From a virus: a stretch of 64,000 nt of DNA. Each line of letters opens with the position of its first letter. Position 1 is the stretch's first letter. The notes under the pieces were generated by a model. The model made no database searches. It was not told the origin of the DNA and was given only the letters and a program-made list of their open reading frames with translations. Where the stretch lies: positions 1 through 64,000 of IMG/VR virus record IMGVR_UViG_3300046710_000150; one strand, given 5' to 3'. Below are positions 5,961 through 21,268 of the stretch, piece after piece. Made by a program: the position numbers and the translations under genes.

Positions 5961-8900
5961 CAGCTCCGCCTCGGCTTCGAGGATCAGGGTGATCAGGCGC
6001 TCGATCTCCGCGTCGTTGCCGATGGGGATGGGGCGAGGGATCCCTGCCTCGATCTTGATGGAGAACTCACGGCTCAGGGCGGGCGGGTTGCCCAGCGGGT
6101 CGGTCGGAGCACCACCATCCTCGGGGAAGATGATGAAGGACGAGCCCCTGACGTAGGCCCCGATGGTGAACGCACCAAGACCCCCGCCCACGGGCGCGAT
6201 CCATGCGTCGATCCCGAACCATGGGGCCACCATGGCGTCGAGGGTGATAGCAGCAGGCTCCATCGCGATGTTCGCAGCGAGGTAGATCCTCTGACCGCGC
6301 TTCTCTCCGAGCACGAGGGCGTCCAGCGTGAACGATCCGCGCCGGTCCCCGGCCGCCACGATCTCTGCCTCGACCACGAAACTCGCAGCCTTGGTGGGCA
6401 AGTAGGACCATGCGTCGAGGTGGAAGGAGCCAGACCCACCCCGGGTGACGGCAGCGTCGATGTACAGGTAGGGCTGGATGAAGGCGTCGGCCGTGAAGTG
6501 GATCTGATAGAAGCAGGCGTCCAGCGTGAAGCCACGTGCGGCGACGTTCGCGAAGACGTAGAAGAACGCCCCGCCTGCACCCAGAATGCTGGCATCCAGC
6601 AGCCACGAGCCACGTACCTCGCCCTGAGGGGCGATTTCGGCATCGAGAGTGCAGGCTGACTGCTTCGTCAGCCCCACGATCTCCGCGTCGATGGTGATCG
6701 GGTCGCCCAGAGTGCCAACGATCCATGCGTCGATGGTCGGAGCGGGGTACGACAGGATGCGATCTATCTGCTGGCTGTAGGTCAGCAGGCCGCTTCCAGC
6801 CATAGACGGCTTATAGGCACCATCGGTGTAGGCGTAGACGTAGTAGGGCTCGAAGTAGTACGACGGCCAGAAGGTGATGATGGTCGTGGGCCCGCGTACC
6901 ACCGTGATCTGGCCGGGGCCCTGAGCGGAGTCTGCCCCCGGAGCTGGACGCGCCCACAGGTTCTCGTTGGCGGAGTCGATCCCGATGGCCGTCTGCGGGA
7001 TGCTGAGATCGCCCCAGATCGTGATCGTGACCGGCTGGTAAGCCGGGAACCAGATCGGGCCAGAGAGGACGTTATCACCTGCCGACCCATCTGGCAGCAC
7101 CATGTTCGCGCCGGGGAAATCGAGGAGCTGGCTGGCATTCTCGAGAACGCTGACAACCTCTCCCTCGCCCTCGTAGACCACGGTGTGGATGGACGAGATG
7201 AACGCTTCGATCAGGAAGTCCCCGCTACCAGTCCTGACGATGGCGGCGTCGAGGAACATGCTGGTGATCGGCTGCCCCGGCAGGATGATCGCCGCACTGA
7301 CCTTGAACGAGCCAGTGGGGTGGATTGCCTTGATGGCATCGAGGTAGAAATGCGGGTGCAGCCACAGCTCCCAGTACTGGTCCCAGTACGCGGAGGCGTC
7401 GTACTTCTCGGCGAAGATCGTGAACGAGCCGCCCCTCTTCCACGTGTTGGTCTTGTACGCGAAGATCGAGAAGAACGCCTGCTGGCGACCCTTGATCACG
7501 GCGTTGATCAGGAAGCCCGTGATCCCCGCGCTGATCGTGAAGCTGCCCTGCGGGCGGCGGACGATGGCGGAGTCCAGAAGGACCGACCCGAGGGTGACCC
7601 TCAGAAGGGTGGCGTCGAGCCGGAAGTAGCCCTCGATGAAGGCAGCCACGGTGAAGCTGCCGAGCTTCGCGTTGGACACGTAGGCGTCGACGTTGAATGT
7701 CCACGCACTCCGCCCAACGATGACGGCGTCGACCTTGAAGTGGGGTCGGATGCGAGCGTCGATGGTGAAGCTCGAGCTGATCCCCGAGATCTTCCACGCA
7801 TCGAGATGGATGCCACGGTCGTCGTGGCGGTAGTAGGTGATGACCTTGGAGGCATCGACCTCGAAATGCGGCTGGACCCACGACGAGATCGAGAAGAACC
7901 CGAAGACCGGGTGCGTCTTCCACGCCGCCACCGTGAACGCCAATGACCGCGTGCCAATGACAATGGCGTTGATCCTGACAACGCCGCGCACGAAGGCATC
8001 GAGTGTGAAGGACCCCGTGACCCTGCGGCTCAACCATGCGTCGAGGGTGAACTCGCATTTGATCCATGCGTCGATGGAGAAGTGGCGAGACGCGATCCGG
8101 GCGTCGAGGGTGAAGGTCGGCTGGATGAAGGCCCCGATGGTGAACGCTGCTGCCTGTCGACGGCGCAGCGAGGCCGCCACCGTGAAGGTGGAGCCGAAGG
8201 TCCAGACGAACCTTGCGTCGATGGTGAAACGAGGCTGGATGAAGGCCCCGATGGTGAACGGGAGGCCCGTGCTCCAGTCCTTGTACCAACCAGCACCCGT
8301 CAGGGCGGGCCGGTAGACATTGTCCTTGAAGGAGGCGACGTAGTAGACGCCGGGAACGGCGACCACGTCGTGCTCGCCCAGATCCGTGGAGACCGGGTAG
8401 CCAGTGATCGCCCCGGCAATGCTCAGGTCTCCGCCGTCACTCGGGGGCGAGTCGACAACAACGACAGCCTGCTCCCCGGCGCTGATCGGGAACGCGGGGG
8501 ACAGGGCGTTGGCCGTCAGCCCACCACGGGTCCTACTGGTGCCGGGGAAGGCGAGGGGTCGAAGCCCGGGACCAACCGTGGCGAGGATGACCGCGTTGAT
8601 CAGGATGAACGACCCGCCGCCACCCACCTGCGCGTTGACTGCGAACCCAGAGACGATGGTCGCGCCCTTGATCGCGTCGACCCTGAAGTGAGCCGGGACA
8701 GTCTCGGCGTCGAGGGTGAAAGAACCCGCGTAGGTGGTCCTGAAGACCGCCTTGATCGTGAACGATCCTGAGCGCGGCCCGAAGATGGCGGCCTTGGCCG
8801 TGAATGACCCGGTGCGGTGGGCCAGCACGACCGCGTCGGCATGGAACCCGAGGTCGATCCGAGCGTTGATCCAGAAGTAGGGCTGGACGAAGGCGTCGAC

Positions 8901-9575
8901 GTGGACCGGGTGAACGACGAGCTGGGTGAGGATCGCGCCGACGGGGATCGACCCTGTCTGGGTCCTCCAGAGGTCCGCGCTGATCGCGAACGCCTTCTGG
9001 TTCGTCAGCCGGATGACGGCCGCGACGGCGAAGGATCCTGTAGCGGGCTTCGCCCTGATCGCGTCAACGCTGAAGCGAAGCGGAGCGAACGCCGCGTCGA
9101 GGGTGAAGCCAGCACCCGTCCCGATGGCGGCCCAGATCGTGAAGCCTGCGCTCGGGCTCGCCTTGATGACGGCGTCGAAGAGGACTCGACCGTTGGTCCG
9201 CTCGTGCAGAACCTCGATGACCACCTGAGAGACGCGAGCGTAGGCACCAGTCGGCGCGACCAGCACCTCGACCGGAGACTGGCTAACACGGGCTCGAGTC
9301 TCGTTGTCGTAGATGGCGTCGAGGTGGAAAGACCCAGCCTGAGGACCCTTGATGACGGCCTTGAGGGTGAAGCTACCGGTCGGGTTCTTGCGGGCATTGA
9401 GAGTGAAGGAAGAAGAAGCGGTGGCCTTGACGACGGCGTTGATCGAGAAGGCTCGAACCAGAACCGCGTCGATCCTGAATGCCTTGTCCAGCCGGATCTC
9501 AGCGTCGAGGAAAACCCCCAGCCCCGACTCGAAGACCGACAGATCAAAGACGGTAGGGTCGAAAGACGCCGTCAT
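5352..9575 (-). CDS. giant tail protein: ~70 short beta-type repeats plus C-terminal Cys-peptidase-like domain
   Basis: 1407-aa ORF. Repeats of 12-16 aa with core (G)SF(T/A)(L/I/V)(D/N/K)A run through aa ~40-1150. ARVSQxxxEVL motifs near the N-terminus. C-terminal DIDDCWLVA...GLHQIGV...YVDNP. Confidence 0.85.
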   Translation of the reverse strand: MTASFDPTVFDLSVFESGLGVFLDAEIRLDKAFRIDAVLVRAFSINAVVKATASSSFTLNARKNPTGSFTLKAVIKGPQAGSFHLDAIYDNETRARVSQSPVEVLVAPTGAYARVSQVVIEVLHERTNGRVLFDAVIKASPSAGFTIWAAIGTGAGFTLDAAFAPLRFSVDAIRAKPATGSFAVAAVIRLTNQKAFAISADLWRTQTGSIPVGAILTQLVVHPVHVDAFVQPYFWINARIDLGFHADAVVLAHRTGSFTAKAAIFGPRSGSFTIKAVFRTTYAGSFTLDAETVPAHFRVDAIKGATIVSGFAVNAQVGGGGSFILINAVILATVGPGLRPLAFPGTSRTRGGLTANALSPAFPISAGEQAVVVVDSPPSDGGDLSIAGAITGYPVSTDLGEHDVVAVPGVYYVASFKDNVYRPALTGAGWYKDWSTGLPFTIGAFIQPRFTIDARFVWTFGSTFTVAASLRRRQAAAFTIGAFIQPTFTLDARIASRHFSIDAWIKCEFTLDAWLSRRVTGSFTLDAFVRGVVRINAIVIGTRSLAFTVAAWKTHPVFGFFSISSWVQPHFEVDASKVITYYRHDDRGIHLDAWKISGISSSFTIDARIRPHFKVDAVIVGRSAWTFNVDAYVSNAKLGSFTVAAFIEGYFRLDATLLRVTLGSVLLDSAIVRRPQGSFTISAGITGFLINAVIKGRQQAFFSIFAYKTNTWKRGGSFTIFAEKYDASAYWDQYWELWLHPHFYLDAIKAIHPTGSFKVSAAIILPGQPITSMFLDAAIVRTGSGDFLIEAFISSIHTVVYEGEGEVVSVLENASQLLDFPGANMVLPDGSAGDNVLSGPIWFPAYQPVTITIWGDLSIPQTAIGIDSANENLWARPAPGADSAQGPGQITVVRGPTTIITFWPSYYFEPYYVYAYTDGAYKPSMAGSGLLTYSQQIDRILSYPAPTIDAWIVGTLGDPITIDAEIVGLTKQSACTLDAEIAPQGEVRGSWLLDASILGAGGAFFYVFANVAARGFTLDACFYQIHFTADAFIQPYLYIDAAVTRGGSGSFHLDAWSYLPTKAASFVVEAEIVAAGDRRGSFTLDALVLGEKRGQRIYLAANIAMEPAAITLDAMVAPWFGIDAWIAPVGGGLGAFTIGAYVRGSSFIIFPEDGGAPTDPLGNPPALSREFSIKIEAGIPRPIPIGNDAEIERLITLILEAEAELDALYCAVENFTPQGYTAVKGPSPNPSGGGYNRGSSLPGAISQIGYPNAGDIDDCWLVATVWAAVASGQTYRPDATTYRRAAMNPDRPGPTGGTADQTFRGAKGCWPGANIRRYVSTDWNGFTSLLKAGWVASLAVNSGALPGYLQYGFYGLHQIGVAYQNGQYYVDNPLMSNGTSPVSIDEIALRTAARGFSGGVICATMFG

Positions 9576-9590
9576 CAGCGATCACCGGGC

Positions 9591-9617
9591 ACAACAAAAG
9601 AGCCCCTTCCGGGGCTC
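9591..9617 (-). terminator. intrinsic terminator (minus strand)
   Basis: Minus-strand read GAGCCCCggaaGGGGCTC followed by TTTTGTTGT: perfect 7-bp GC stem, 4-nt loop and a U-tract. Lies between the stop at 9674 and the start at 9575. Confidence 0.65.
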
Positions 9618-9630
9618 CTCGTCGTTCTCG

Positions 9631-9666
9631 CCATGGGATTGGTCTTCATTCCGACCATGGGATTGG
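9631..9666. repeat. two copies of 12-mer CCATGGGATTGG (9631-9642, 9655-9666)
   Basis: Exact direct repeat. The same 12-mer pair recurs at 31928-31968. Both pairs sit upstream of a hairpin and of a repeat-protein gene. Confidence 0.8.
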
Positions 9667-9673
9667 CCGCCGA

Positions 9674-11266
9674 TCAGACTGCGTTCGCGTCCAGATTGTG
9701 CCAGACGTGGTACTCGATGTAGGGGCGGCCCGGGGCCGAGGGATCCGTCTGGAAGATGCCCTTGTCGGGGTCGACCTCGATGAAGCCCTTGATCGTGCTG
9801 TCGGGGCTGTTCAACGCGGTCTGTCGGAGGCCCTTCACCACCACCGTCAGGCTGCCCCTGACGTAGGCGTAGGAGCACTGCCACTTCCCGCCAGACATCT
9901 GTGCGGGCCACTCCTTGACCAGCGTCATGGGCGAGGCCACCACGTAGGGGTAGTCGACCTTCGGGTCCTGCCGCGAGATAACGTTGAAGTTGGGCTGGAC
10001 CAGACCCCTCGTGGGAGGACGCTTCAGGGCGAGGAGCAGACCCCACGGATCCTGCGTGTCGTACGAGCACGTCACCTGATACTCGACCGTGGTCGGAGTC
10101 GGGAAGCTCATGGACATGGCCCGGATCGGGAGGTCTACCCCGTCCCTCGTCTGGAGCCCGAACACGGGGTCATACGTGGTGAAAGTGTGGACCCCCGAGA
10201 AGATGCTCACGATCTGGCCCGGGAAGAGGCCGTGCTTGTAGACCGTGAAGGAGGCCCGCATCGCTGGGGTGCCTTCCTGATTGAGGAGCTTGTTCGCCCG
10301 GGCGTTGACCATGCCCTGCATCCAGTCGGAGCCCATCACCTCGCTCCACTGAAAGCGCCCGAACAGGTTCACCGAAGGGTTGTTCACCTTGTGGACGAAC
10401 CTCAGGAACTCCTGCGTCGACGTCGGGGTGGGGTCGAGAGTCCCCGTGAAGACCAGCACGTCGTTCTTGAGCATCGAGATGTCGGTGGTCACCGAGAGGT
10501 TCTTGCAGGCGATGCTCCCGGCGTTGTCGCCTACCGACCACGGAGCCCGCTCGTAGTCCTGCTCTCGCCACACGATGTAGCCGTCGGGGTCGATGTACCA
10601 GATGGCCGATCCCGGCTGGCTGCGGATGATGTTGCTCGAGACGTCGGTGAAGAACGCCCGCAGCGAGGTCCCTGCCGAAGGGGGTGTCCACGTGTTCTGG
10701 GTGTCGCCCGTGTTGATCTCGCTGATGGGGACCATCTTGCAGTCGCTGGGCGCAAAGGGGGCTTGGCCGTACTTGATGGTGGGGCTGACCTTGTTGAGGT
10801 CGAAGTCCTTCATCATGGTCTGGATGTAGGTCTTGTCCATCGTGTGGATGGGGACCGAGACCACGTAGCCCGTGTTCTTGCCGTCGTCGAGCGTCACCTT
10901 CATGCGCTTGTACGTGCCCCCACCGTCGGGGTACTTCACGGGGTGGGCTCGGTTGTACAGGAACAGCTTGTCGAACAGGATGTTCAGGTCGACCCCGTGC
11001 AGGATCAAGCGGGGCTCTGGCTTGTCGGGGAAGACGAACCCCTGCTCCTTGATGAACAGGTAGCCCCACCACATCCTTCGACCGTTGATGTAGAGCGCGA
11101 GGAGATCGCCCTCCGTGATCTCGGGATGGAGCCCCCTCACGGTGATCTGGCAGGACCCCGGCTGAGCAGAGGCCGCCACCTGAAAGTTGGTCTGGGTGAA
11201 GATCACGTCGGCCGAGATGTCGGACGTCCCGGCGGTGATCGTGACGACCGCCTCCTCGACGTCCAT
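9674..11266 (-). CDS. minor tail protein (first gene after tape measure; distal-tail/hub position)
   Basis: 530-aa ORF. Its start codon overlaps the TMP stop at 11266. Synteny places it immediately downstream of the TMP. Confidence 0.8.
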   Translation of the reverse strand: MDVEEAVVTITAGTSDISADVIFTQTNFQVAASAQPGSCQITVRGLHPEITEGDLLALYINGRRMWWGYLFIKEQGFVFPDKPEPRLILHGVDLNILFDKLFLYNRAHPVKYPDGGGTYKRMKVTLDDGKNTGYVVSVPIHTMDKTYIQTMMKDFDLNKVSPTIKYGQAPFAPSDCKMVPISEINTGDTQNTWTPPSAGTSLRAFFTDVSSNIIRSQPGSAIWYIDPDGYIVWREQDYERAPWSVGDNAGSIACKNLSVTTDISMLKNDVLVFTGTLDPTPTSTQEFLRFVHKVNNPSVNLFGRFQWSEVMGSDWMQGMVNARANKLLNQEGTPAMRASFTVYKHGLFPGQIVSIFSGVHTFTTYDPVFGLQTRDGVDLPIRAMSMSFPTPTTVEYQVTCSYDTQDPWGLLLALKRPPTRGLVQPNFNVISRQDPKVDYPYVVASPMTLVKEWPAQMSGGKWQCSYAYVRGSLTVVVKGLRQTALNSPDSTIKGFIEVDPDKGIFQTDPSAPGRPYIEYHVWHNLDANAV

Positions 11267-14200
11267 CAGACGGCCGCACCGCGCAGGCCGAACATCTGAC
11301 CCTTGCGGGCGAGGCTCTTCTCGACTTCGATAGCCACGCAGCGAGCCAGCTCCGCGATGTCCTGCTCATTGCGGACCACGGGCCCGTTGATGTTGACGGT
11401 GACCGGACCAGAGGCCCCGCCGGTCGCCGCCAGAGAGCCAGCACGGGGGTTGCGGAGGACGGCTACGGTCTCGGTTCCAGCTTCGCCGAAGGTGATGTCG
11501 GTGGGCCGAGAGGCGGTAGCCAGATATCCCGTGGCCTTGCCTCCGTCGTTCCGACCGCCGTTCCCGGCGACGATGGGGGAGTACCCGAGGATCTTGCGGA
11601 GGGCGTCGGTGCCGTCCTTGAGGGTGCCCGCGAACTGGCCGACACCCTGCGTGGCGGCCGAGAGGACGTCGCCCCAGTTGCCGGTGGCGGTCCCGAGGAT
11701 GGCGTCCATGCCCGCCACCTTGGTCGCCATGATCTGGCCTTCCTTGGCGATGGCCTCCTGCGCCGCGATGGTGTAGCCCTCGGCGTTGCGCGCCAACTGC
11801 ATGCTGGTGATGGCCTTCTGGGCGTCCGTCGCGGAGCGGTTGGCGTTCTCGATCCAGATCTGCTTCGAGAGGTTGAACTGCTGCGTGGAGATGTTCAACT
11901 GCTCCTGCTGGATCCCGGCCTTGGCGATGGCTTCCTTCTGGGCGAAGAACCGCTCCTCGCCTGTCTGACCGGGAGCTTGGAACTGAGCCTGCGCCAGAGC
12001 GGTGGTGATGCCGCGCTGCTGGAGCTGCAGGCCGAGCTGGGTGCCCTGAATGTCGAGGCGGTGCATCGCCCCTTCCATCTTGCCCAGAGCCGTGCCACCG
12101 GCCTTGCCCAGCATCCCGAGGGCGTCCCCGAGGGTCCGCGTGGCGATACGGATCTGGTTGTCCCAGTTGAACTGACTCGACTCCTGATTGAGCTTGCCCA
12201 TCTTCGTGGTCAGGTCAGCGATCCTCGCCGCCGACATCTGGGACTGGATAGCGAGCATGGCGAAGTTGGGCAGCGAGGCCGGATTGAACTGCCCCACCTG
12301 ATTGAGCGCCTGCACCATGCCCTGACCGGCGATGGCACCCAACCTGACGTTCGACCCAGCCGAGGAGGCCAGAGCCTGCTGGGCCATGCCTGCCGCAGGA
12401 CCGGTCATTCCGGCCGCAGCCGCGCTCGGCTTCCCGGTCGTGGCACCGGGGAAGAACCCGAGGCCCGGAGCGACGAGGGGCTGCTGCAGCAGGTTCTTGG
12501 TCGTGGCGTAGGGGATCTCGAGGGCCATGGTGAGCTGCTGCTGGGCCACCCGGGCCTGCTTCTGGGCGTTGAGCTGGCGCAGGTTCATCTGGGCCCAGAC
12601 ACCGGCCTCGATGATGGTCTTCCCGAAGCTGACCTGAGAGATGGCGTCCGTGTATTCCTTGGCGCTCTTGGCGAGTTCCCCGTTGATCTTGACGATGACG
12701 TGCGACTTCTGGGCGAGGTCGATCCCGCTCTGGTCGTTCGCCTGATTGGCGATGAACGACGCCTTTGCCACCTCGTCGAGGCTGTTGGTGTACTCGTACG
12801 TGACCTTCGTGGTCTTGCCGAGGTTGTCCTGTGCCCGCGACCCGGCGGCATTCAGGTCGTCGAGGTACTTGGTGAGGTTGCCCATCGCCTCAGGCGTGGG
12901 GGTCTTGAAGGCCCCGGGGTTCGGGGGTGGGGGCGAGATCCAATCCATGAGGTCGGCGACGATGGGAGCGCGAGGGATCAGGCTCTTCCCGCCGTTCTGG
13001 GAGTCCACGAATGTCCTGAACGAGTCGCTCGTCAGGTACTTGGTGGCGTTGCTGATGGCCTCGCTTGGACCCCCGCCTCCACCCGGCTGGCTGGCGGTGT
13101 TCACGTCACCTGCGACGATCTCCTGAAAGCCCTTGCCTCCGCCCATCTGCTCTGCGAACAGGCTGGACCCAAGGAAGCCGCCGTACCCACCGAACAGCCC
13201 CTGAGGGGCCTGCTGGTTCTGAGCACCCATGGTGGCGCGGAACAGGTTGGACGTCTCCTGCTGCGCCCTCGCCCCAGCCTTGGCATTGACCGACGCAGAC
13301 AGAGCGTCAGAGACGAACGCGAGCATGTCCTTCGACAGGCCAGCCGTGACCCCAGCCTGCGCCAGCGTGGCCTGTGTGTTGCCGTGGGCCTCGTACGTGG
13401 CCTGTCCGAGGGCCGTCGTGGTGGCGGTGAACGCTGACTTCCAGCCAGTGAACTGGTCGACCACCTTGCCCAACGCCGGGATCGCGGCGTCGGTGATGAC
13501 GGTCGAGGCGAGCTGCATTGCCATGCCGTAAGCAGTGGTGGCCCCGATGATCACGCCGAGGTTCTTGAGGACGCCGCCCGTGGTGGGCATGGCCTTGGCG
13601 GTGGCTTCCTTCAGGACATCCAGCCGCTGGGCCTCGACCCTCTTCGCCTCGCGGATCGGTTCGACGACGCCGCGCAGGGCCTTGGAGTAGTCAGCCTGAT
13701 GGATCCGACCCTCGTCGAGATCCTTCCGCAGGGCGACCTGAGCGGCACGTCCCTCGCCGACAGTCCGGTTGGTCCGGTTGAAGGCCGAGGTGTAGGCGTT
13801 GGCGGCTTCGACGCGCTCGCGCTCCGCCTTCGTCATCTGCTGGACGCCGCCGAAGAGGAACGAGCCGATGGCCGCGACAGCACCTGCAGGGGTGCGAGAC
13901 GGCATCACCTTGCCAGCCCCGGCCCGCATGACCGCCAGCTCCTCGCCCATGTTCTCGCGGGAGGGCATGTACTGGGCGCGGCCGGAACGAGCCTTCTTCA
14001 CCGTGGCGGCGATGATCTTCTCGCGCTCGACGCGCTCGATGGCCTCGACCTCGGGCAGTGCCGAGTACGCAGCGGCTCGCCTCCGGGGCGGAGGAGGGGT
14101 AGCTTCGAGGAAGGGGATGGGTCCGGGCTCTCCCCACACGTCAGCCCGCGCCATAGCCTCCTGAGCTGCTGCCCGCATTCGCTCCGTGCGCGTGCCACGA

Positions 14201-17200
14201 GCTGCATGCGGGACCTGATCCATCAGGCGGTTGGGGACGATGATCCCGTCCTCGGGGGGCGCGAACAGGCTGTTCGGCTTCTGGCCGATCACCTGCATGC
14301 CGCCCTGCGCCTTCGGGATCTGGTCCATGACCTTCTTGGGGATCAGGGGCGTCAGGGGCTTGGGGACGAACAGCTCCCTGCCAATCTCGCCGACGATGTA
14401 CAGGCCCTTGCCGCCGGGAGACAGTTCCTTCGCGGGAAGGTTGTTCTCGAGCGCACGTCGCACCCATGGCGACATGACGGGACCACCGCCCTCGCGACCA
14501 GTGAACTTCGCGAAGATCTCGGCTGCCCGCATGCGCTGCGGATCCACCCGCTCGAGCGAGCGGTTGGCCGAGGCAATCCGGGTGAGCCCGGGGCTCTCGA
14601 TCAGTCCGCCGATGGCGCGAACTGCCGCCTCCGCGTCGGTGCCGGTGGCACGGAGCCGGAGCTGGTCACCCTGCCGCGCACCCAGCGCCAGCAGGTGGTG
14701 CATGTACTTCGCGTCGACCACGCCGCGCTGCGGCATGCCACGGGTCAGGTTCTCGACGCTGATGAAGGCGTCGAAATCGGCCGCCATCCTCGCGAGGTGG
14801 GCCGAGGGACGCATGTGGAGGCCGAGCTGGTCCGCGACCGTGAAGAGGTGGCTGACCGGCCCTCCGCCCTCGCGGTAGATCTTCGGGGGGAGCTTCGACG
14901 TGCGGGCGCGCTTCAACCACTCGGGCTCGAAGGGCTCGACCGGCTTCGGCATTTCGACCTTCGGAGGCTCGGGCAGGCCGAGGATGCGGCGCTGCAGTGG
15001 GCCCAGAACGGGGCCCCCCTCGGCGTGCCCTCCCTTGGTCCAGTTGGTGCCGTAGACGCCGCGCATGTAGTTCCCGGCCAAGGCCCGAGTCCAACGTCGG
15101 GGGTCATTGAGACTCCCCATGGTCTCGTTCCAGCGCCGGTCGCCGACCAGCGTGCCACCCGTGAAGGGAAGAGGCGCTCCGACGAAGTCCTCGTTCAGGC
15201 GGGGAGGTCCGACACGCTCGATACGCTTGGGATTGAAGACACCAGCGCGGTACTGGCGCAGGCGCTCGCGACGACGCTCCCAGTCGCGGTTCGGCACGTA
15301 CCCGCCGCGAGCCTTGTGCTGGGCCGCCTGCTGCTGCCACGCCATGATCGCCATGAAGGGATCGTTGGCCCAGTCGGCAGCGGTCTGGAACATGGACGAG
15401 ACGAACCCGGGCTTGGCGATCTGGTTGAGGGGCGGAGTCATGCCCCCCAGAGCAGGGCCACCAGCGGCTCGATGGAAGGGGATCTCGAGCCCCGGATGAC
15501 GCGGGATCGAGATGCCGCGCTGGGTCCTGAGCCAGTCCGTGCCGAGGCCAGCGCCCTTGTGGGCGGCGTTGACGTTCGTGTCGAGGCCAGACCAGAGGAT
15601 GGCCTGAAACTCGCTCAGGTTGTGGAGGTCCCACCGCTTCGCGTACTCGGGGTAGAGGTCCTCCATCGCCCCGATGCCGAGCTTGCGGATCATGTCGCTC
15701 CCGGCGGGAGCCTTCCAGAAGGTCTTGCTGTTCGGGCCGGTGTGGCGACGAGCAGCGGTGATGATCTGGGACATGCGGGAGTCGTAGGTGATGGCGTTCG
15801 GATCGAGGCCAGTGATGTTCTGGAACATCGCGCCGCGCTTGGGCCCAGTCGGAGAGTCCTCGCGGCCCATCAGGAACGCCCATGCGTCCTCGATGGGGCC
15901 AAGGCCCCGACCGGCGGAGAAGGACGTCTCGCCGAACCCGGGCACGTTGGAGCTGCCGGAGGTTTGGGGGACTCCGGTCTCGAGCAGATGGCGGACGATG
16001 GCACGGTTGGAGCGCCACTCCTGACCCGACGAGGCGGCAGCGAACGCGCCAAGACCCGACAGGGCATCCATCCCGAGCGACTGCCAGCTCGTCTTCCCGC
16101 CGATGATCGGGTCCATGAGGTCACCCACGGCCTGCGCGTGAGCGATGGTCCACCAGTCCCGGGCCTCGTTGACCACCTCGGGCTTGATCGTCTCGGCGTG
16201 GGCACGGATGTTCGCATGGAGATCGCGGGCGTTCTCAGGCAGCCGCATCAGGCCACGGAGGGGGTTCTTGGGAGTGGAGGATGGCACCACCCAGCCGCCG
16301 TCAGCTCGGAGGCCGATGCTGCTGGGGGCGAGGAGAGCGCCGCGAGGGGCGTCGACCGGCGAGCCCGAGAGGCCCACCAGCTTGTAGTGGCGCTTGCTCT
16401 GGGGACCGCTGCTGATCGCGTAGGCGGGCACGGTCTCGAGACCCAGTCGACGAGCCACGGCGAGGCGATGATTGCCATCGTCGACCATGGCCGCGTGGTG
16501 CGACGGGTCGTAACGCAGGGCGATGGGCTTCTGGATGCCACGCGCCGCGATGTCGCCGGTCAGCTCACCGAGATCGGTGGCACCCTGTCCGGTGCGTGGG
16601 TACGTCTCCCGGTCCTCGCGGAGCAGGGGCAGCAGAGTCGACAGGCGGACGTTCTCGACCATTCCCCCCGACTCGCGCTTGCGGCCAGCCATGATGAGCT
16701 GTTGGATCCGCTCGGCGTTGGCGCGCAGCTTGTGGGAGCTGGTCGGGATCTCGTCGAACCGCTTCAGGTCGAAGAACGCGAGCTGCTCCTTGGCGCGAGC
16801 GACCATGTCCGCTTCGCGCTTGCGGCCGAGGACGGCGGCGGGGTCGATGTGGATCTGGCCCTCGTGGAGCCACGTCCCGACGTAGGGCGGGAAGCTGCCA
16901 GCCGCGAGCTGAGACTTCTTCTGGGCGTTGAACTGCTTCAGGAAGTCGCGGAAGTTGCTGGGGTCCTCGACGAGGTGCGACGTTCCGGTCGCGATGCCGA
17001 CGGCGTAGCCCTTGGGCGGCTGTGGCCCACCGGAGAGCGGGAAGGTGCCACCCTCGTTCCCCATCGTGGCCCGGTAGGCCATGGCCCCGAACCCGGCCTT
17101 CTTGATGTTCCGCAGGATCCGCCACGACTCGATCTCGCCCGACGGAGCGTGGAGCTGCACGGCGTAGCCCTTGCCGACAGGAGCCACACCCACGTACCCA

Positions 17201-19053
17201 CCCGGGGCAGAGTGGTCCTGATAGTGGTTGATCGTGTCCTGAATGGCGTGGTAGAGCCCCTCAGGACGTGGGGCGTAGTGAGGTCCGCCGCCGGGGAGGC
17301 GGCTGATCTCGACCGCGCCACCACGAGCACGGAAGCGTACGCCGGGGCGGTCGGGAATGAACTGGTTCTCACCGAATGCTGGGGCAGGCTGGGGGACATG
17401 GGCACGGGCAGGTGAGGGGTTCCACTCCGAGGTGGCAGTCCACGGACCATTCTCCCCGTAGGAGACACGGCGCATCTGCTCCTGTGGATCGTTGCGGCGC
17501 TGCGCCCGAGTTCGAGCCCTCGGCGGAAGGGGCTGGCCGAACAGGGGGGCGGGCTGGGGGACGTGAGCAGGCTGCGACGGGTACAGGGCAGCGGTGGAGG
17601 CCGAGGAGCGGATCGGGGGGACATTACCCGGCCCGTTCCACGGCGTGGCGTCTGGGGCAACCGAGGGGGGGTTGAGGGCTCGACGAGCCGCCGCCATGCG
17701 CTCGAACTCCAACGTACTCCGGTCGTCAGCCTCTTCGCGGGCAGCCGTGGAGAGCACATGTGCGTCAACGGGACGATCCCCGAAGATCTTCCCGAACGGC
17801 CGATCCGGCTGAGCCCAGAACGCCTTACCGCGTGTGAGTTGGACCTTCGAGGGGGCGACGGGACGCCCAGTGAACCGCTCCGTCTTGACGTAGGCTGCAG
17901 TCGCCAGACCCTTCCTGCGGTGCTCGACACCCGTGATCGAGTAGTCAGGGTGGAAGCTCCCTGCGGGAGTGGGGACGCCCCACTGCTCGGGGTCCGAGCG
18001 GTAACTGAAGGGGAAGGTCGCCGCGACCTTGTCGCCCTTCTTGACTACGGCAATGAGCCCGGCCACGTAGTCCTTGGACAGGATGGGGGGCTTCTTGACG
18101 GCCTTGAACAACCGGTTGCTTGGTTCGTTCAGGCCACCACCGAAGTTGCGGATATCGAAGTCGTTGCTCTGGGGGCTGTAGAACTCGATGTGGTAGCCCC
18201 GGGGGAGTCCACCCTTGTGGGCTGGACCGCCGTGAGCGAGATGGGGCAGGCGCTGGGGAGCCTGCTGATCGTGGCGGTCAATAGCCATGTCGAGATGGAG
18301 CAGAGCGGCGTCACGCACGCGCCTGAGGGCGCGACTCGGCGAGAAGCTCTGCAGGTTCCGCTCGTGCTGGCGCTGCTGCTGGTACTCGAGAGCGGCCAGC
18401 TCTGCCTCGCGCTTGCGGAACTGGGCCTGCTTCCGGTAGAACTCCTCGGCGTTGGCGTGGATCGTCCCCGAGGCACGCGGGGTGAAGACCTCTGCACGCC
18501 TCTCCCCCACTAGAACGGCCTGTCCCTGCTGTACAGGGCCACCGTGGGCCCGAGTGGGCATGTTGTTGCGAACGGCCGTCTCAACGGCTCTGGCGGCCCC
18601 TGAGCGCGTTCCAATGGCCGGGGTCGAAACGGCAGAGACGACCTTCTTGGCCTCGTTGGTGGCATTGCTAACGGCCCCCTGAAGAGCCGAACCGATGGAC
18701 TTGGAGAGATCCGCAGATCCCCCCGTACTGCTCGTGGTCAACGTGATCGGGATGGAGCCGATGCCCTTGATGATGGCGGCACGGAGAGTGGCGAGACTCT
18801 CCGCGTTCACCGTCAAGGGGACATTGACAGCGGCCATCTGCGAGGTCGACGGACCAGTGCCGGTGACGGCCCTGCCACCACCGGCCACCTGAGCCCCACC
18901 CGCAGCCCGCATCTGGGACGCGCCGGAGGCAGCTTTCTGGGCCGAGGTGGACATGGCGTTATTGGCCGCCGTGACCGCCTCGGCCTTTCCGATGTAACCA
19001 GCAGCGTCCAGCGTGAGCCTGACGCCAATGGTCTCGACTTCCGTGTTCGACAT
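11266..19053 (-). CDS. tape measure protein, 2595 aa, with embedded globular domains
   Basis: Directly downstream of the G/GT chaperones. The N-terminal 160 aa and C-terminal ~950 aa are Ala/Gly/Gln-rich and helical, as in TMPs. GGxV...VGE..E..P motifs at aa 171-192, 1547-1564 and 2504-2533. Confidence 0.9.
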   Translation of the reverse strand: MSNTEVETIGVRLTLDAAGYIGKAEAVTAANNAMSTSAQKAASGASQMRAAGGAQVAGGGRAVTGTGPSTSQMAAVNVPLTVNAESLATLRAAIIKGIGSIPITLTTSSTGGSADLSKSIGSALQGAVSNATNEAKKVVSAVSTPAIGTRSGAARAVETAVRNNMPTRAHGGPVQQGQAVLVGERRAEVFTPRASGTIHANAEEFYRKQAQFRKREAELAALEYQQQRQHERNLQSFSPSRALRRVRDAALLHLDMAIDRHDQQAPQRLPHLAHGGPAHKGGLPRGYHIEFYSPQSNDFDIRNFGGGLNEPSNRLFKAVKKPPILSKDYVAGLIAVVKKGDKVAATFPFSYRSDPEQWGVPTPAGSFHPDYSITGVEHRRKGLATAAYVKTERFTGRPVAPSKVQLTRGKAFWAQPDRPFGKIFGDRPVDAHVLSTAAREEADDRSTLEFERMAAARRALNPPSVAPDATPWNGPGNVPPIRSSASTAALYPSQPAHVPQPAPLFGQPLPPRARTRAQRRNDPQEQMRRVSYGENGPWTATSEWNPSPARAHVPQPAPAFGENQFIPDRPGVRFRARGGAVEISRLPGGGPHYAPRPEGLYHAIQDTINHYQDHSAPGGYVGVAPVGKGYAVQLHAPSGEIESWRILRNIKKAGFGAMAYRATMGNEGGTFPLSGGPQPPKGYAVGIATGTSHLVEDPSNFRDFLKQFNAQKKSQLAAGSFPPYVGTWLHEGQIHIDPAAVLGRKREADMVARAKEQLAFFDLKRFDEIPTSSHKLRANAERIQQLIMAGRKRESGGMVENVRLSTLLPLLREDRETYPRTGQGATDLGELTGDIAARGIQKPIALRYDPSHHAAMVDDGNHRLAVARRLGLETVPAYAISSGPQSKRHYKLVGLSGSPVDAPRGALLAPSSIGLRADGGWVVPSSTPKNPLRGLMRLPENARDLHANIRAHAETIKPEVVNEARDWWTIAHAQAVGDLMDPIIGGKTSWQSLGMDALSGLGAFAAASSGQEWRSNRAIVRHLLETGVPQTSGSSNVPGFGETSFSAGRGLGPIEDAWAFLMGREDSPTGPKRGAMFQNITGLDPNAITYDSRMSQIITAARRHTGPNSKTFWKAPAGSDMIRKLGIGAMEDLYPEYAKRWDLHNLSEFQAILWSGLDTNVNAAHKGAGLGTDWLRTQRGISIPRHPGLEIPFHRAAGGPALGGMTPPLNQIAKPGFVSSMFQTAADWANDPFMAIMAWQQQAAQHKARGGYVPNRDWERRRERLRQYRAGVFNPKRIERVGPPRLNEDFVGAPLPFTGGTLVGDRRWNETMGSLNDPRRWTRALAGNYMRGVYGTNWTKGGHAEGGPVLGPLQRRILGLPEPPKVEMPKPVEPFEPEWLKRARTSKLPPKIYREGGGPVSHLFTVADQLGLHMRPSAHLARMAADFDAFISVENLTRGMPQRGVVDAKYMHHLLALGARQGDQLRLRATGTDAEAAVRAIGGLIESPGLTRIASANRSLERVDPQRMRAAEIFAKFTGREGGGPVMSPWVRRALENNLPAKELSPGGKGLYIVGEIGRELFVPKPLTPLIPKKVMDQIPKAQGGMQVIGQKPNSLFAPPEDGIIVPNRLMDQVPHAARGTRTERMRAAAQEAMARADVWGEPGPIPFLEATPPPPRRRAAAYSALPEVEAIERVEREKIIAATVKKARSGRAQYMPSRENMGEELAVMRAGAGKVMPSRTPAGAVAAIGSFLFGGVQQMTKAERERVEAANAYTSAFNRTNRTVGEGRAAQVALRKDLDEGRIHQADYSKALRGVVEPIREAKRVEAQRLDVLKEATAKAMPTTGGVLKNLGVIIGATTAYGMAMQLASTVITDAAIPALGKVVDQFTGWKSAFTATTTALGQATYEAHGNTQATLAQAGVTAGLSKDMLAFVSDALSASVNAKAGARAQQETSNLFRATMGAQNQQAPQGLFGGYGGFLGSSLFAEQMGGGKGFQEIVAGDVNTASQPGGGGGPSEAISNATKYLTSDSFRTFVDSQNGGKSLIPRAPIVADLMDWISPPPPNPGAFKTPTPEAMGNLTKYLDDLNAAGSRAQDNLGKTTKVTYEYTNSLDEVAKASFIANQANDQSGIDLAQKSHVIVKINGELAKSAKEYTDAISQVSFGKTIIEAGVWAQMNLRQLNAQKQARVAQQQLTMALEIPYATTKNLLQQPLVAPGLGFFPGATTGKPSAAAAGMTGPAAGMAQQALASSAGSNVRLGAIAGQGMVQALNQVGQFNPASLPNFAMLAIQSQMSAARIADLTTKMGKLNQESSQFNWDNQIRIATRTLGDALGMLGKAGGTALGKMEGAMHRLDIQGTQLGLQLQQRGITTALAQAQFQAPGQTGEERFFAQKEAIAKAGIQQEQLNISTQQFNLSKQIWIENANRSATDAQKAITSMQLARNAEGYTIAAQEAIAKEGQIMATKVAGMDAILGTATGNWGDVLSAATQGVGQFAGTLKDGTDALRKILGYSPIVAGNGGRNDGGKATGYLATASRPTDITFGEAGTETVAVLRNPRAGSLAATGGASGPVTVNINGPVVRNEQDIAELARCVAIEVEKSLARKGQMFGLRGAAV
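14593..14862 (-). other. HPr-like (PTS phosphocarrier fold) domain inside TMP, aa ~1398-1487
   Basis: HLFTVADQLGLHMRPSAHLARMAADFDAFISVENLTRGMPQRGVVDAKYMHHLLALGARQGDQLRLRATGTDAEAAVRAIGGLIES aligns along its whole length with HPr (G-[IL]-H-x-R-P-[AS] active-site loop, DA.V, [NA]-K-S-type loop, G.DE..A). Confidence 0.75.
16399..16656 (-). other. ParB/Srx-like N-terminal domain inside TMP, aa ~800-885
   Basis: IQKPIALRYDPSHHAAMVDDGNHRLAVARRLGLETVPAY matches the ParB-like nuclease domain core (hydrophobic-DG-x-HR...A...G...VP). Confidence 0.65.
17779..18201 (-). other. GNAT-like acetyltransferase fold segment inside TMP, aa ~285-425
   Basis: ITGVEHRRKGLATAAYVKTERFTG...TRGKAFWAQ resembles GNAT motif A (R-x-x-G-x-[GA]) and the following helix/strand. 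Weaker than the HPr and ParB calls. Confidence 0.4.
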
Positions 19054-19070: not shown

Positions 19071-19651
19071 CTACACCGACTCCCCCTTGAGAGTCTCAGC
19101 GTTGAAATCTATGACGTCGTCGGCCGTGGGCAATCGTTCGCCTTCGGTGCCGATGCTGTTTGCCTTCACCCAGTCCTCGCGCAAGGCGAGGTAGTAGTGA
19201 AAAGGGAGCTGCGCTACCTCGTGAGGCCACTTCCCGTATCGCAGGGCGATGCGGAAGATGAGGTCACGAGTGGTCAGGCGTTTCCCTTGGGGGTCTCCTC
19301 ATCCACGTCGGGCTCGGCGCTCATGGGCTTCTTGGACTCCGGCTCGTCACCGTAGTGCATGCGGTTGACGGTCGTGTTGAGCTTCAAGGCCGCCCGCATC
19401 GGGAAGCTCGCCAGAGTCTCGGGCGTGATCTTGGGGTCGAAGGAGCACTTCAGGACCATCATCTTGAGGAGCACGGCGTTGTCGATGGTCTCGACATCCT
19501 CTCCCGTGATCGGGTTCGTGACCTTCTTGGTGGCCTTGGTCACCAGATCGTCGTAGTCCCCGATGGAGAGTTCCCGCAGGTGGTACGTGATGCCCCGGAT
19601 GTTGACCTCCTCCTCGAGGAAGTCAGGCGTCAGCGGCTGGTTCTTTGGCAT
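19071..19651 (-). CDS. tail assembly chaperone GT fusion (via -1 frameshift)
   Basis: After a slip at GGGAAAC the -1 frame reads GKRLTTRDLIFRIALRYGKWPHEVAQLPFHYYLALREDWVKANSIGTEGERLPTADDVIDFNAETLKGESV and stops at TAG 19071-19073. That frame has no start codon of its own. Confidence 0.75.
19274..19651 (-). CDS. tail assembly chaperone G
   Basis: ATG at 19651 with AGGAG upstream. 125 aa, acidic C-terminus, located just upstream of the TMP. Confidence 0.8.
   Translation of the reverse strand: MPKNQPLTPDFLEEEVNIRGITYHLRELSIGDYDDLVTKATKKVTNPITGEDVETIDNAVLLKMMVLKCSFDPKITPETLASFPMRAALKLNTTVNRMHYGDEPESKKPMSAEPDVDEETPKGNA
19280..19286 (-). other. -1 programmed frameshift slippery heptamer G_GGA_AAC
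   Basis: Minus-strand read ...CCC AAG GGA AAC GCC TGA. A canonical X_XXY_YYZ site four nt before the G stop codon. Confidence 0.75.
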
Positions 19652-20033
19652 TGTGGAAACTCCTGAGGTATGTGATGGCCTTGGCGAGGATCGCCTCCGA
19701 GTCATGGGCATGGCCCAGTAGGAGGTTGCAAGACGGGCAAAGCAAGCCCCGTGGCTCATCTGTGCGGTGATCGTGGTCGATGTGCGTCCCCTTGCGTGAC
19801 GGGTCCAGCACATTCCCACAGATGGCGCATCTGCCAGCCTGACCAACGAGTTGGTCCCTGTACCAATCAGCGGTGACGCCGTGCTGTCGCAGGCGGTGAG
19901 CAGCAACACGCGCCTTCTTCTGGACCAGAGTCATGCCGTGGTACTTGGCTCTGGCCTTGGCTTGAAGCTCTTCGAGGTGGTTCGCGTACCACCGGGCGTA
20001 GTTCCCGTGCTGGGCTTCAGCCGTTCTTGTCAT
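19623..20033 (-). CDS. HNH endonuclease (endonuclease VII type)
   Basis: GRCAICGNVLDPSRKGTHIDHDHRTDEPRGLLCPSCNLLLGHAHDSEAILAKAITYL carries the C-x2-C...DHDH...G.LC..CN signature. Confidence 0.85.
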   Translation of the reverse strand: MTRTAEAQHGNYARWYANHLEELQAKARAKYHGMTLVQKKARVAAHRLRQHGVTADWYRDQLVGQAGRCAICGNVLDPSRKGTHIDHDHRTDEPRGLLCPSCNLLLGHAHDSEAILAKAITYLRSFHNAKEPAADA

Positions 20034-20364
20034 TGTTGTGGATCGTCACTTTCTCTATCAGTAGGCTCCGGCCTTCACGTACCGTTCGCGAGTCTTCGGC
20101 CAACTCGAGCCTGTACTGTCGGTAGGGGTTCAGGTTCAAGAGCACGACCTTGTCGTACTCCGGGTCATTCCAGAGCGCATCACTCAGAAATGAGAAGACG
20201 GCGTGGAGATCGTAGAGGCCCGCATCCGGGTCTTGATCGCCACGCCGCTGGAGAGTCCACGACTGGAGTTCCCCTACCTTCGCACCGAGGAAGGGGATTT
20301 CTACGGTTCCGGCGGGCTTGAAGATCCCTGACCGGATGGTCTTGAACAGATATCCCATCGCCAT
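20017..20364 (-). CDS. hypothetical protein (between tail tube and chaperones)
   Basis: 115-aa ORF, ATG at 20364. No motif recognised. Confidence 0.6.
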   Translation of the reverse strand: MAMGYLFKTIRSGIFKPAGTVEIPFLGAKVGELQSWTLQRRGDQDPDAGLYDLHAVFSFLSDALWNDPEYDKVVLLNLNPYRQYRLELAEDSRTVREGRSLLIEKVTIHNNDKNG

Positions 20365-20444: not shown

Positions 20445-20870
20445 TTAGAGCGATCCGGCCGTGAAGACGGTCCACGCTCCGGCAGCCTTGAAGTTGCCGG
20501 TGGTCTTGATCGCGTCCGAGATGGACGCGGTGATCGCGGCGTCGATCAGGCTCGGGCCGTAGCCGATGAGCAGCTCGGAACCGGCGCGGTCATCCGCGTA
20601 CAGATAGACGTCGATGCTGTCGCTCGTCGCGGCGTTGACCTGATAGTCACCGCTCACGTCGAGGAGACCGGCAAACGTGCCGGAGACGTCCCGAAGACCC
20701 ACGAGGTAGGTCTTGTTCGTGTCGCCGAACACCGTCGCGTCGACATAGTCGCGGTTCAGGTTCAGCGTCCACTCGGTCTTGGTCGTGACCTTCTTGCCGG
20801 TGCCCTTGGGGCCCCAGAGATAGATAGCACCGTTTTTGCCGTGAAGCTTGGTGCCTGCTCCTACTGCCAT
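20445..20870 (-). CDS. major tail (tube) protein, paralog 2
   Basis: 141 aa. KLHGKNGAIYL...TEWTLNLNRDYVDATVFGD.NKTY..GLRDVSGTFAGLLDVSGD...TGNFKAAGAWT is collinear with the 20891..21268 product. Confidence 0.75.
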   Translation of the reverse strand: MAVGAGTKLHGKNGAIYLWGPKGTGKKVTTKTEWTLNLNRDYVDATVFGDTNKTYLVGLRDVSGTFAGLLDVSGDYQVNAATSDSIDVYLYADDRAGSELLIGYGPSLIDAAITASISDAIKTTGNFKAAGAWTVFTAGSL

Positions 20871-20890: not shown

Positions 20891-21268
20891 CTAACCGATG
20901 GTCCACGCCCCGGCAGCCTTGAAGTTGCCCGAGCAACGAACCGCGTCGGAGACGCTGGCCGTCACGGATGCGTCCACGTAAGCTGGGCCTGAGGCGACGG
21001 CGGGTTCTCCCTCCCTCGCATACACGGCGATGGTCACTGCTGACCCCGTGTTGCTCTGGACGAGGGCGTCCCCGTCGACGTCCAACAGTCCCGCGAAGGT
21101 CCCGCTGATGTCCATAAGCCCCGCCGCGTACACCTTGTTCCTGTCACGGAACGTGGAGACGTCGGCGTAGTCACGAGCCATCGAGAGAGACCACTCGGTC
21201 TTGTTGGTGACCTTGACCCCGTTGATGTAGATCGCAGCGTTCTTGCCATGCAGTTTCCGCCCAGCCAT
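20891..21268 (-). CDS. major tail (tube) protein, paralog 1
   Basis: ATG at 21268 shares one nt with the upstream stop. MAGRKLHGKNAAIYINGVKVTNKTEWSLSMARDYADVSTFRDRNKVYAAGLMDISGTFAGLLDVDGD...SGNFKAAGAWTIG. Confidence 0.75.
   Translation of the reverse strand: MAGRKLHGKNAAIYINGVKVTNKTEWSLSMARDYADVSTFRDRNKVYAAGLMDISGTFAGLLDVDGDALVQSNTGSAVTIAVYAREGEPAVASGPAYVDASVTASVSDAVRCSGNFKAAGAWTIG

Follow-up and report, generated by a model that had tools for sequence, protein, structure and literature searches.

A giant tape measure protein of an uncultivated siphovirus with shuffled putative cargo cassettes bounded by a T5-type maturation-site peptide

Tape measure proteins (TMPs) of phage tails carry an occasional cell-wall hydrolase, and those of T5 and lambda are cut once near the C-terminus. 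Here we describe a giant open reading frame (ORF) of 2595 amino acids (aa), at 11266-19053 on the minus strand of a 64,000-nucleotide stretch of viral DNA (positions 1 to 64,000 of the IMG/VR record IMGVR_UViG_3300046710_000150), referred to as the window. On the basis of synteny, size, composition and a T5-type element, we assign it as the tail TMP of an uncultivated high-GC siphovirus. Between a conserved N-terminal part (N-core) and a conserved C-terminal part (C-core), its cargo region (aa 169-1581) reads, from sequence comparison, as a chain of about eight autonomous domain cassettes.

TMPs of mycobacteriophages with embedded peptidoglycan-hydrolase motifs were reportedly described by Pedulla in 2003. 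These TMPs hold 1-3 cell-wall-acting motifs and have no delimiting junction peptides, unlike the window protein, in which the cargo is of cytoplasmic type (HPr, ParB-N and GNAT-like), numerous and shuffled. Polyvalent proteins of phages and conjugative elements are said, in work by Iyer, Burroughs, Anand, de Souza and Aravind in the Journal of Bacteriology in 2017, to string together unrelated conflict-type domains (ParB-like, methylase, zincin peptidase), and it was reportedly proposed that they enter the host with the DNA and are then proteolytically processed. The window protein resembles them in that many unrelated effector-type domains are fused in one giant phage protein, and several giants that are not TMPs share single modules with it. 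It differs in its carrier, which is a tape measure whose ruler C-core is conserved and whose junction peptide is defined, and in the built-in peptidase of polyvalent proteins, which is not in the window protein. A functional non-ruler domain that is embedded in a TMP and delivered at infection has a precedent in the TM4 TMP (Piuri and Hatfull 2006, PMC1796659). Tme and Sle1 of actinobacterial contractile injection systems (CIS; PMC11126660, PMC13277306) are comparable as TMP-like carriers in a tail-like tube with an exchangeable functional domain; however, they belong to CIS loci and have one C-terminal functional domain, whereas the window cassettes are multiple and N-proximal. The window gene lies amid capsid, prohead protease and siphovirus-type tail genes, rather than in a CIS cluster with a sheath and no capsid.

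The two TMPs with described maturation cleavage are those of T5 and lambda. In T5 pb2, mass spectrometry placed the cleavage after R1127 (Linares et al. 2023, PMC10038345), and the cleaved 92-aa fragment, pb2C, stays in the tail (PMC10038345); the cut parts a functional domain from the ruler. Lambda gpH loses ~14 kDa from a Gly-rich C-terminal region, its site and protease being unmapped (PMC12617516), and the TMP cleavage signal and protease are still open for both phages (PMC12617516).

The coordinates and length of the giant ORF were correct in an earlier annotation of this DNA (here the original prediction), and the gene is on the minus strand, with its ATG at 19053 and its stop at 11266-11268. 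The GC content at third codon positions (GC3) is 0.74-0.91 in each 150-codon block and, therefore, the ORF is one uninterrupted coding frame. Reading along the same strand, the order is a tail-completion gene (21268-21699), major tail genes, two small ORFs, the giant ORF, an ORF of ~525 aa and an ORF of 1407 aa, which places the giant gene downstream of the major tail genes and between genes in the tail-assembly-chaperone position and genes in the Dit/Tal position. The gene order is identical in two relatives on 76.6-kb contigs (L001 and L002), in which the 520-530-aa downstream neighbour is also kept. With prohead protease and capsid genes on the same strand at 25098-26669 and 23752-25092, the neighbours are a siphovirus structural module.

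The features of the protein, all on the minus strand, are given below from the N-terminus to the C-terminus, with the evidence for each.

11266-19053, minus: whole giant ORF in tape-measure position (ORF call, synteny, continuous GC3)
18550-19053, minus: N-core, aa 1-168 (collinear in 18 relatives; phrog_30701 matches 17/18 members scanned)
18478-18552, minus: full T5-type maturation element, aa 168-192, R↓AHGGPVQQGQAVLVGERRAEVFTP, where ↓ marks the bond cut in T5 or the bond corresponding to it (strict T5 pb2 pattern, identical spacing)
17734-18231, minus: GNAT-like minimal module, aa 275-440, with motif HRRKGLATAAY (PDB GNAT profile match)
17329-17733, minus: Pro-rich linker, aa 441-575, with duplicated AHVPQPAP[L/A]FG, probably disordered (sequence and composition)
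17311-17331, minus: junction RARGGAV, first Gly aa 578 (motif count, family consensus, alignment ends)
17104-17328, minus: small domain, aa 576-650, with internal conserved APGGYVGIAP (free-standing homologues)
16726-17094, minus: predicted alpha/beta domain, aa 654-776, phrog_17808 (AlphaFold2 pLDDT 92, pTM 0.81)
16657-16677, minus: junction RESGGMV, first Gly aa 796 (motif count, relatives' alignment, alignment ends)
16306-16665, minus: ParB N-domain-like module, aa 797-916, with DDGNHR (PDB profile match; Pfam below cut-off)
16288-16308, minus: junction RADGGWV, first Gly aa 919 (motif count, relatives' alignment, alignment ends)
15313-16305, minus: DUF7178-like module, aa 917-1247 (AlphaFold2; PF23802 recorded in relatives)
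15295-15315, minus: junction KARGGYV, first Gly aa 1250 (motif count, relatives; helix break)
15025-15312, minus: module of aa 1248-1343, predicted as mostly low-confidence or disordered (AlphaFold2 model)
15007-15027, minus: junction HAEGGPV, first Gly aa 1346 (motif count, relatives)
14872-15024, minus: 51-aa mini-module, aa 1344-1394, GPLQRRILGLP...EPEWLKRARTSKLPPKIYR (conserved in at least 9 giants)
14854-14874, minus: junction REGGGPV, first Gly aa 1397 (motif count, relatives)
14494-14871, minus: HPr module (phosphocarrier of the phosphotransferase system, PTS), aa 1395-1520 (Pfam PF00381, PDB HPr chains)
14476-14496, minus: junction REGGGPV, first Gly aa 1523 (motif count)
14311-14493, minus: middle full element, aa 1521-1581, GGKGLYIVGEIGRELFVP, at the C-core start (relatives' alignment, element pattern)
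14293-14313, minus: degenerate junction KAQGGMQV, first Gly aa 1584 (motif and element scan)
11539-14310, minus: C-core, presumed ruler, aa 1582-2505 (collinear in relatives; composition)
11269-11538, minus: C-terminal element and pb2C-like tail of 89-90 aa, aa 2506-2595, ATGYL...FGEAGTETVAVLRNPR... (strongly conserved in the family)

Nine copies of the motif GG-x-V were found in the protein, with the first Gly at aa 171, 578, 618, 796, 919, 1250, 1346, 1397 and 1523, and all nine are preceded by [R/A/E]-x; the expectation from shuffled versions of the protein was 1.5 for GGxV and 0.4 for [RAE]xGGxV (maximum 3 across 2000 shuffles). Most of the ten sites listed in the original prediction were exact, except that aa 275 reads GGPA, aa 1584 reads GGMQV and aa 618 had been missed. 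The aa 618 copy is not a junction, because it is a conserved internal part of the small domain and free-standing homologues of that domain carry it internally too. Over the 19 giant proteins of the family described below, the motif was refined to R-[A/M]-x-G-G-[P]-V, with Arg in 84 and Lys in 16 of 138 family sites at position -3, and it occurs at 4.25 copies per 1000 aa across the N-terminal part and cargo (123 sites) vs 0.5 per 1000 aa in the C-core (11 sites). All four Gly codons are used in the motif copies, Val and Arg codons are mixed, and the mean pairwise nucleotide identity over the 21-nt core is 0.53. This synonymous-codon diversity indicates that the peptide, rather than a DNA signal, is under selection.

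The junction peptide is the N-terminal half of the T5 pb2 cleavage element. The T5 cleavage-site sequence is NSFVPR↓AEGGMMYPGVSYQMGEHGTEVVTP, within the element R1127↓AEGG...MGEHGTEVVTP, and the strict pattern R-A-x-G-G-x9-[VM]-G-E-x3-E-V-x-T-P matches T5 aa 1127-1151 and window aa 168-192 with identical spacing. This N-core copy is present in 17 of the 18 relatives. A C-terminal copy, K2505↓ATGYL...FGEAGTETVAVL, is degenerate with one Gly and stands 89 aa from the end, compared with 92 aa in T5, so that the two proteins share the peptide element, its spacing and a copy ~90 aa from the C-terminus, with no overall sequence similarity. They differ in that T5 pb2 has one site and one small C-terminal fragment, while the window protein has ~9-10 sites, mostly in its N-terminal 60%, and ~8 unrelated cassettes. 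The three fuller versions of the element that had been predicted are all real and the one at aa 171-192 is exact, whereas those at aa 1547-1564 (GGKG plus IVGEIGRELFVP) and aa 2504-2533 (ATGYL...FGEAGTETVAVL) lack a strict GGxV.

Lambda gpH is cleaved in a Gly-rich C-terminal region (PMC12617516), and this region bears two A-T-G-G-[F/Y] copies, one at aa 734 (HFATGGFTG...GIVHRGEFVF) and one at aa 779 (RGYATGGYVG); gpH differs from the window protein in having no cargo domains. A cut before A734 would yield 79.8 and 12.5 kDa, near the reported gpH* and the ~14 kDa gpHC. The expectation that the motif normally occurs once, near a TMP C-terminus, held for T5 pb2, but lambda gpH has two copies and SPP1 gp18, the TP901-1 TMP, HK97 gp16 and L5 gp26 have none; the motif is hence recurrent among TMPs, not universal.

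The family is rare: a homologue search over 5.8 billion proteins gave no more than 18 giant relatives of 2146-3325 aa (here with P numbers, such as P0001), all environmental, which bring it to 19 giants including the window protein. In IMG/VR, 13 further loci were found. By BLASTP, each of the 18 relatives aligns collinearly with aa 1-235 and aa 1546-2595, and the region between them is a mosaic. The ParB-like module (aa 800-922) precedes the module of aa 650-799 in P0005, P0006 and P0010, and the HPr module (aa 1394-1497) lies elsewhere in P0003 (991-1092), P0004 (529-630) and P0010 (369-487). When all giants were aligned against all, 334 of 1219 ends of high-scoring segment pairs in the variable regions fell at most 8 aa from a motif, vs 79 expected, with peaks at -3 (Arg) and +3 (Val). 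On either side of the variable region stands a full element, GGPV...LVGE[RK]xxEV at about aa 170 and IVGEIGxEL at about aa 1550. From one relative to another, cassettes come, go and change order, and they are exchanged at the motif. The comparison with relatives proposed with the original prediction thus gave shuffled modules between collinear cores, and the idea that the motifs are module boundaries is strongly supported, as module order differs among relatives and alignment ends cluster at the motif. An assembly fusion of the giant ORF was ruled out by the 19 independent giants of similar architecture.

Cassettes start right after the junctions: the first beta-strand of the HPr, ParB-like and aa 576-650 modules adjoins the motif. 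AlphaFold2 modelling of aa 919-1400 shows the aa 1250 junction as a non-helical break separating two predicted helices, and the aa 1346 junction lies between a disordered stretch and the mini-module. An exhaustive search over 1.84 billion representatives showed that modules also occur as independent small proteins, with free-standing homologues for aa 338-437, 575-650, 654-775 and 797-919. Giants that share single modules but have no TMP cores show no junction motifs. Zero matches were returned by a homologue search with aa 575-780 despite P0001 being ~77% identical to the window protein over that range, which we take as an index limitation.

Two observations were made on giant genes in related contigs. 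In L002 (CAYHBG010000001.1), a second giant gene at 1-1048 (2622 aa, no Pfam match) is located upstream of the head genes, and no counterpart was noticed in the window. In IMGVR_UViG_3300028802_000007 (130,935 bp), two divergent copies of the giant gene (L016 and L018) are ~74 kb apart, which reflects either an assembly join between two related genomes or a genome with two tape measures.

Sequence profiles establish one cargo module as HPr and identify a second as ParB-N-like. The HPr family PF00381 matches aa 1403-1486 with E=2.3e-18 and 66.4 bits (cut-off 23), over positions 4-80 of the 81 in the profile; TIGR01003 falls just under its cut-off (45.8 vs 47.9), and PDB HPr chains match with E=1e-5. 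The active site reads GLHMRP, and neither His15 nor Arg17 (G-[LI]-H-x-R-P) varies among 8 divergent copies in the giants. Ser46 of HPr is required only for HprK/CcpA-type regulation; it is Tyr in the window copy (DAKYMHH) and Ser in some relatives. For aa 797-916, the Pfam ParB_N score is below threshold (17.6 bits vs 26.3), but once free-standing homologues are included in the profile, it matches PDB chains of ParB, Noc, Spo0J and KorB with E=7e-6 to 4e-2; [DE]-G-N-x-R is conserved in these modules, as DDGNHR in the window protein.

The GNAT-like module has a weak PDB match to the EctA and AAC(3) GNATs, over motif A only (E=1e-3 to 0.03), and is shorter than a full GNAT domain; its free-standing homologues are of ~120 aa. 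The Pro-rich linker at aa 441-575 separates it from the next junction. The free-standing homologues of aa 576-650 are of 76-145 aa, and no PDB sequence match was found for this domain. In two of them (P0083 and P0092), a Cys-rich, Zn-ribbon-like C-terminal tail is present that is missing from the embedded copy, in line with the scarcity of Cys throughout the giants (0-3 per 2100-3300 aa; 1 in the window protein). The next domain, aa 654-776, is predicted with confidence by AlphaFold2 (predicted local distance difference test, pLDDT, 92; predicted template-modelling score, pTM, 0.81); its free-standing homologues of ~115-130 aa include gp46 of Arthrobacter phage CallinAllBarbz, the sole cultured-phage homologue, which lies in the non-structural genome arm. 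For the DUF7178-like module, pLDDT is >90 over aa 928-1196, and its sole viral structural neighbour in a BFVD Foldseek search is an uncharacterised protein of Mycobacterium phage Myrna. The AlphaFold and Foldseek analysis suggested earlier for the segments between motifs hence gave two confident folds, but nothing significant in PDB for either the aa 654-776 or the aa 919-1400 model. The 51-aa mini-module is found in at least 9 giants, twice in P0002, with a junction on either side, and looks like a short docking peptide.

As to other cargo, the relatives have HE[FVYM]GH zincin modules (8 of 18), GNAT-like modules, a weak DNA-methyltransferase match and further modules without identity. Pfam on the non-redundant cargo of the relatives gave DUF7178 and a weak GNAT match and nothing else. 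No peptidoglycan-hydrolase domain was detected in the window protein by Pfam and PHROGs-type profile scans. The C-core is Ala-rich and poor in aromatics and Pro (16% Ala, 5.7% aromatic, 4.4% Pro), and we presume from this composition that the ends of the protein are ruler-like. The earlier picture of a globular middle with helical ends is hence borne out in the middle for three stretches (aa 654-776, aa 928-1196 and the HPr fold), the ends being judged by composition alone.

Since the junction peptide is half of the T5 cleavage element, cutting at the junctions is the most likely mechanism, and we consider it on balance somewhat probable that the protein is a TMP polyprotein which is cut after Arg at its junctions and whose cargo is ejected ahead of the DNA. 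As the tail matures, cleavage would follow Arg (or Lys) at a subset of the junctions or at every one; the pieces would remain in the tail lumen, as T5 pb2C does, and would be expelled into the host with the TMP, just before the DNA. Cuts after the basic residue at -3 would give the N-core (1-168), the GNAT-like module with the Pro-rich linker (169-575), two small domains (576-793), the ParB-like module (794-916), the DUF7178-like module (917-1247), the mostly disordered module (1248-1343), the mini-module (1344-1394), HPr (1395-1520), the middle full element (1521-1581) and a ruler of 1014 aa (1582-2595). In T5-like phages, the TMP N-terminus is head-proximal and touches the DNA end (PMC10713586); therefore, N-terminally placed cargo would be the last to exit the tail, immediately before the genome, and this placement would suit proteins acting in the cytoplasm. 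There, the cargo may act as pre-made effectors on host DNA, host proteins and the PTS. That the TMP doubles as a delivery vehicle for effector domains, as originally proposed, is plausible given cytoplasmic-type cargo with free-standing homologues and near Cys-free giants. For the proposal that the motifs are processing sites, the precedent is T5 pb2, cleaved at this very sequence; for the window protein itself, cleavage is a prediction and not demonstrated.

Genome entry of lambda and HK97 needs the PTS permeases ManYZ and PtsG, in HK97 via the TMP, as summarised in PMC6832061, citing Cumby 2015. Because of this dependence, an HPr with an intact active site on a TMP is suggestive, and any role assigned to it here would be speculative. 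More tentatively than the cut itself, and as a possibility that we would not expect to hold in full, we propose a multi-effector tail: the polyprotein would be cut at ~9 R↓A-x-G-G junctions, a portable TMP processing signal, and its swappable proteins would reach the cytoplasm before the genome, including an HPr tampering with, or docking onto, the host PTS.

Several points weigh against the cut and ejected polyprotein. Named TMP families gave no match in Pfam, PHROGs, NCBIfam, phage tblastn or PDB chains. None of the 18 family members scanned hit a TMP-labelled PHROGs family; the whole protein and the C-core, compared by megablast and tblastn with 50,697 phage records, gave nothing but one cargo-module match, with no match at E<=1 for the C-core by tblastn; phmmer and profile searches of PDB chains with motif segments and a C-terminal profile gave no TMP chain; and a homologue search with the C-terminal profile returned only fragments without names. 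Most junctions have the short half only, without the downstream GE...E..P, and the full T5-type element is absent from the four other well-studied TMPs examined (SPP1 gp18, TP901-1, HK97 gp16 and L5 gp26). The residue at -3 is not always basic (His at aa 1343, Leu at aa 272), and Pro is frequent at +2 of the junction, which may affect cutting. Folded trimeric cargo may not fit a tail lumen of ~4 nm, and four cargo modules have no assigned function after the PDB, Foldseek and BFVD comparisons. No HExxH was found in the window protein and no protease is evident in it; a protease built into the window protein was rejected for its lack of HExxH and its single Cys.

Some of these points can be read another way, namely that the protein stays intact and the junctions are flexible hinges, turns or docking sites (e.g. 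for a chaperone or the tube lumen) for threading the inserted domains, with the likeness to T5 reflecting a shared structural role. The missing downstream half, the variable -3 residue, the lack of an identified protease and the short inter-helix break predicted at aa 1250 would all agree with this. However, the sole experimental datum for the peptide is cleavage exactly at R↓A in T5, Arg and GG are its most conserved residues and resemble a protease-site signature, and the cassettes match free-standing proteins, with the embedded copies beginning directly after the motif, so that we regard an intact protein as unlikely, if a serious alternative.

It is less probable still, and in our view improbable, that the polyprotein is processed in the infected cell, with the cargo freed as late proteins and only the C-core of ~1014 aa entering the tail as ruler. 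The C-core alone (aa 1582-2595) would fit an ordinary tail of ~150 nm and the cargo domains are of cytoplasmic type, but the cleaved fragment of T5 remains in the tail, and a conserved N-core ahead of the cargo is hard to explain if the N-terminal part is discarded. The near-absence of Cys fits particle-borne, translocated proteins, and takeover-type domains made late and in stoichiometric amounts would be of no obvious use to the producer cell.

The motif could also be a DNA-level, evolutionary device, an in-frame linker which aids cassette recombination but plays no part at the protein level. Cassette exchange at the motif is clear, as this would predict; yet the synonymous positions differ freely, and an identity of 0.53 over 21 nt is too low and too short for homologous recombination. 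A DNA-level recombination signal was rejected on this codon diversity, and we consider such a device very improbable. Finally, the protein could be no more than a very long ruler of the ordinary kind, or a product of faulty assembly or annotation, with a motif arising by chance or low complexity. This would agree with the lack of matches to named TMP families but is hardly credible and was refuted by the motif enrichment (9 vs 0.4 expected), an HPr far above the Pfam threshold, the confident globular folds predicted, and 19 independent giants that share the architecture, the coding signal being continuous.

No relatives of the giant TMP were found among cultured phages in the phage-record searches, and the best match of the capsid protein is 23% identical, to a Bacillus jumbo phage; the phage is very distant from cultured phages. 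In the literature searched, we found no description of HPr in a TMP, of a TMP polyprotein or of TMP effector cargo of this architecture, in keeping with the original prediction, in which no described TMP was known to have such a combination of inserts. TMP-embedded domains (TM4 and T5; cell-wall-acting), polyvalent proteins and CIS TMP-related effectors with one swappable C-terminal domain were already known. New here is cargo that is numerous, shuffled and of cytoplasmic type on the tape measure itself, with the T5-type maturation site repeated as the border of each cassette.

Taken together, the ~120 junctions of the 19 proteins suggest R↓[A/M]-x-G-G as the cleavage signal, by which a single mapped event becomes a comparative data set, and for the unmapped lambda gpH site the family motif yields a prediction, before A734. 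If cutting at the junctions is true, the junction peptide would be a general, portable TMP processing signal that also locates the lambda site. If delivery is true, a non-contractile tail would deliver changeable cytoplasmic effectors, on the principle of polyvalent proteins and CIS cargo. Engineered proteins could then be loaded into phage tails by means of a short, portable junction peptide and a tolerant cargo region.

No tRNAs were found, and the host is not assignable from them. Among species-representative genomes, the sole match is a phage-like contig binned in a Thermotogae metagenome-assembled genome (MAG). This 76.6-kb contig (L010, CAYHBG010000001.1) is filed under an 'uncultured Thermotogae bacterium' MAG; a binning artefact is probable and it is unusable as host evidence.

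The genes around the giant ORF include the following.

20445-20870 and 20891-21385, minus: two major-tail-protein-like genes, upstream context (PHROG major tail protein matches)
19274-20364, minus: small ORFs in the chaperone position, split by an Endonuclease VII/HNH ORF (relative L001 arranged likewise)
5352-11266, minus: downstream ORFs of 530 aa (Dit position) and 1407 aa (Tal position) (ORF list, synteny)

Both of the adjoining major-tail-like genes match the major tail PHROGs phrog_10528, phrog_9522 and phrog_1407, and a duplicated tube protein is possible. The Endonuclease VII/HNH-type ORF (19623-20033, minus strand; CAICG...HIDHDH...CPSCN) sits between the two small ORFs in the chaperone position, and a PF02945 ORF is found at the corresponding place in L001; a homing endonuclease, either conserved or domesticated, is a possible identity. 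The protease and capsid genes have a glycosyltransferase gene immediately upstream (26666-27925, minus strand; phrog_2170, E=2e-32), and a GT4-type gene stands at the matching place in L001 and L002, which suggests virion glycosylation.

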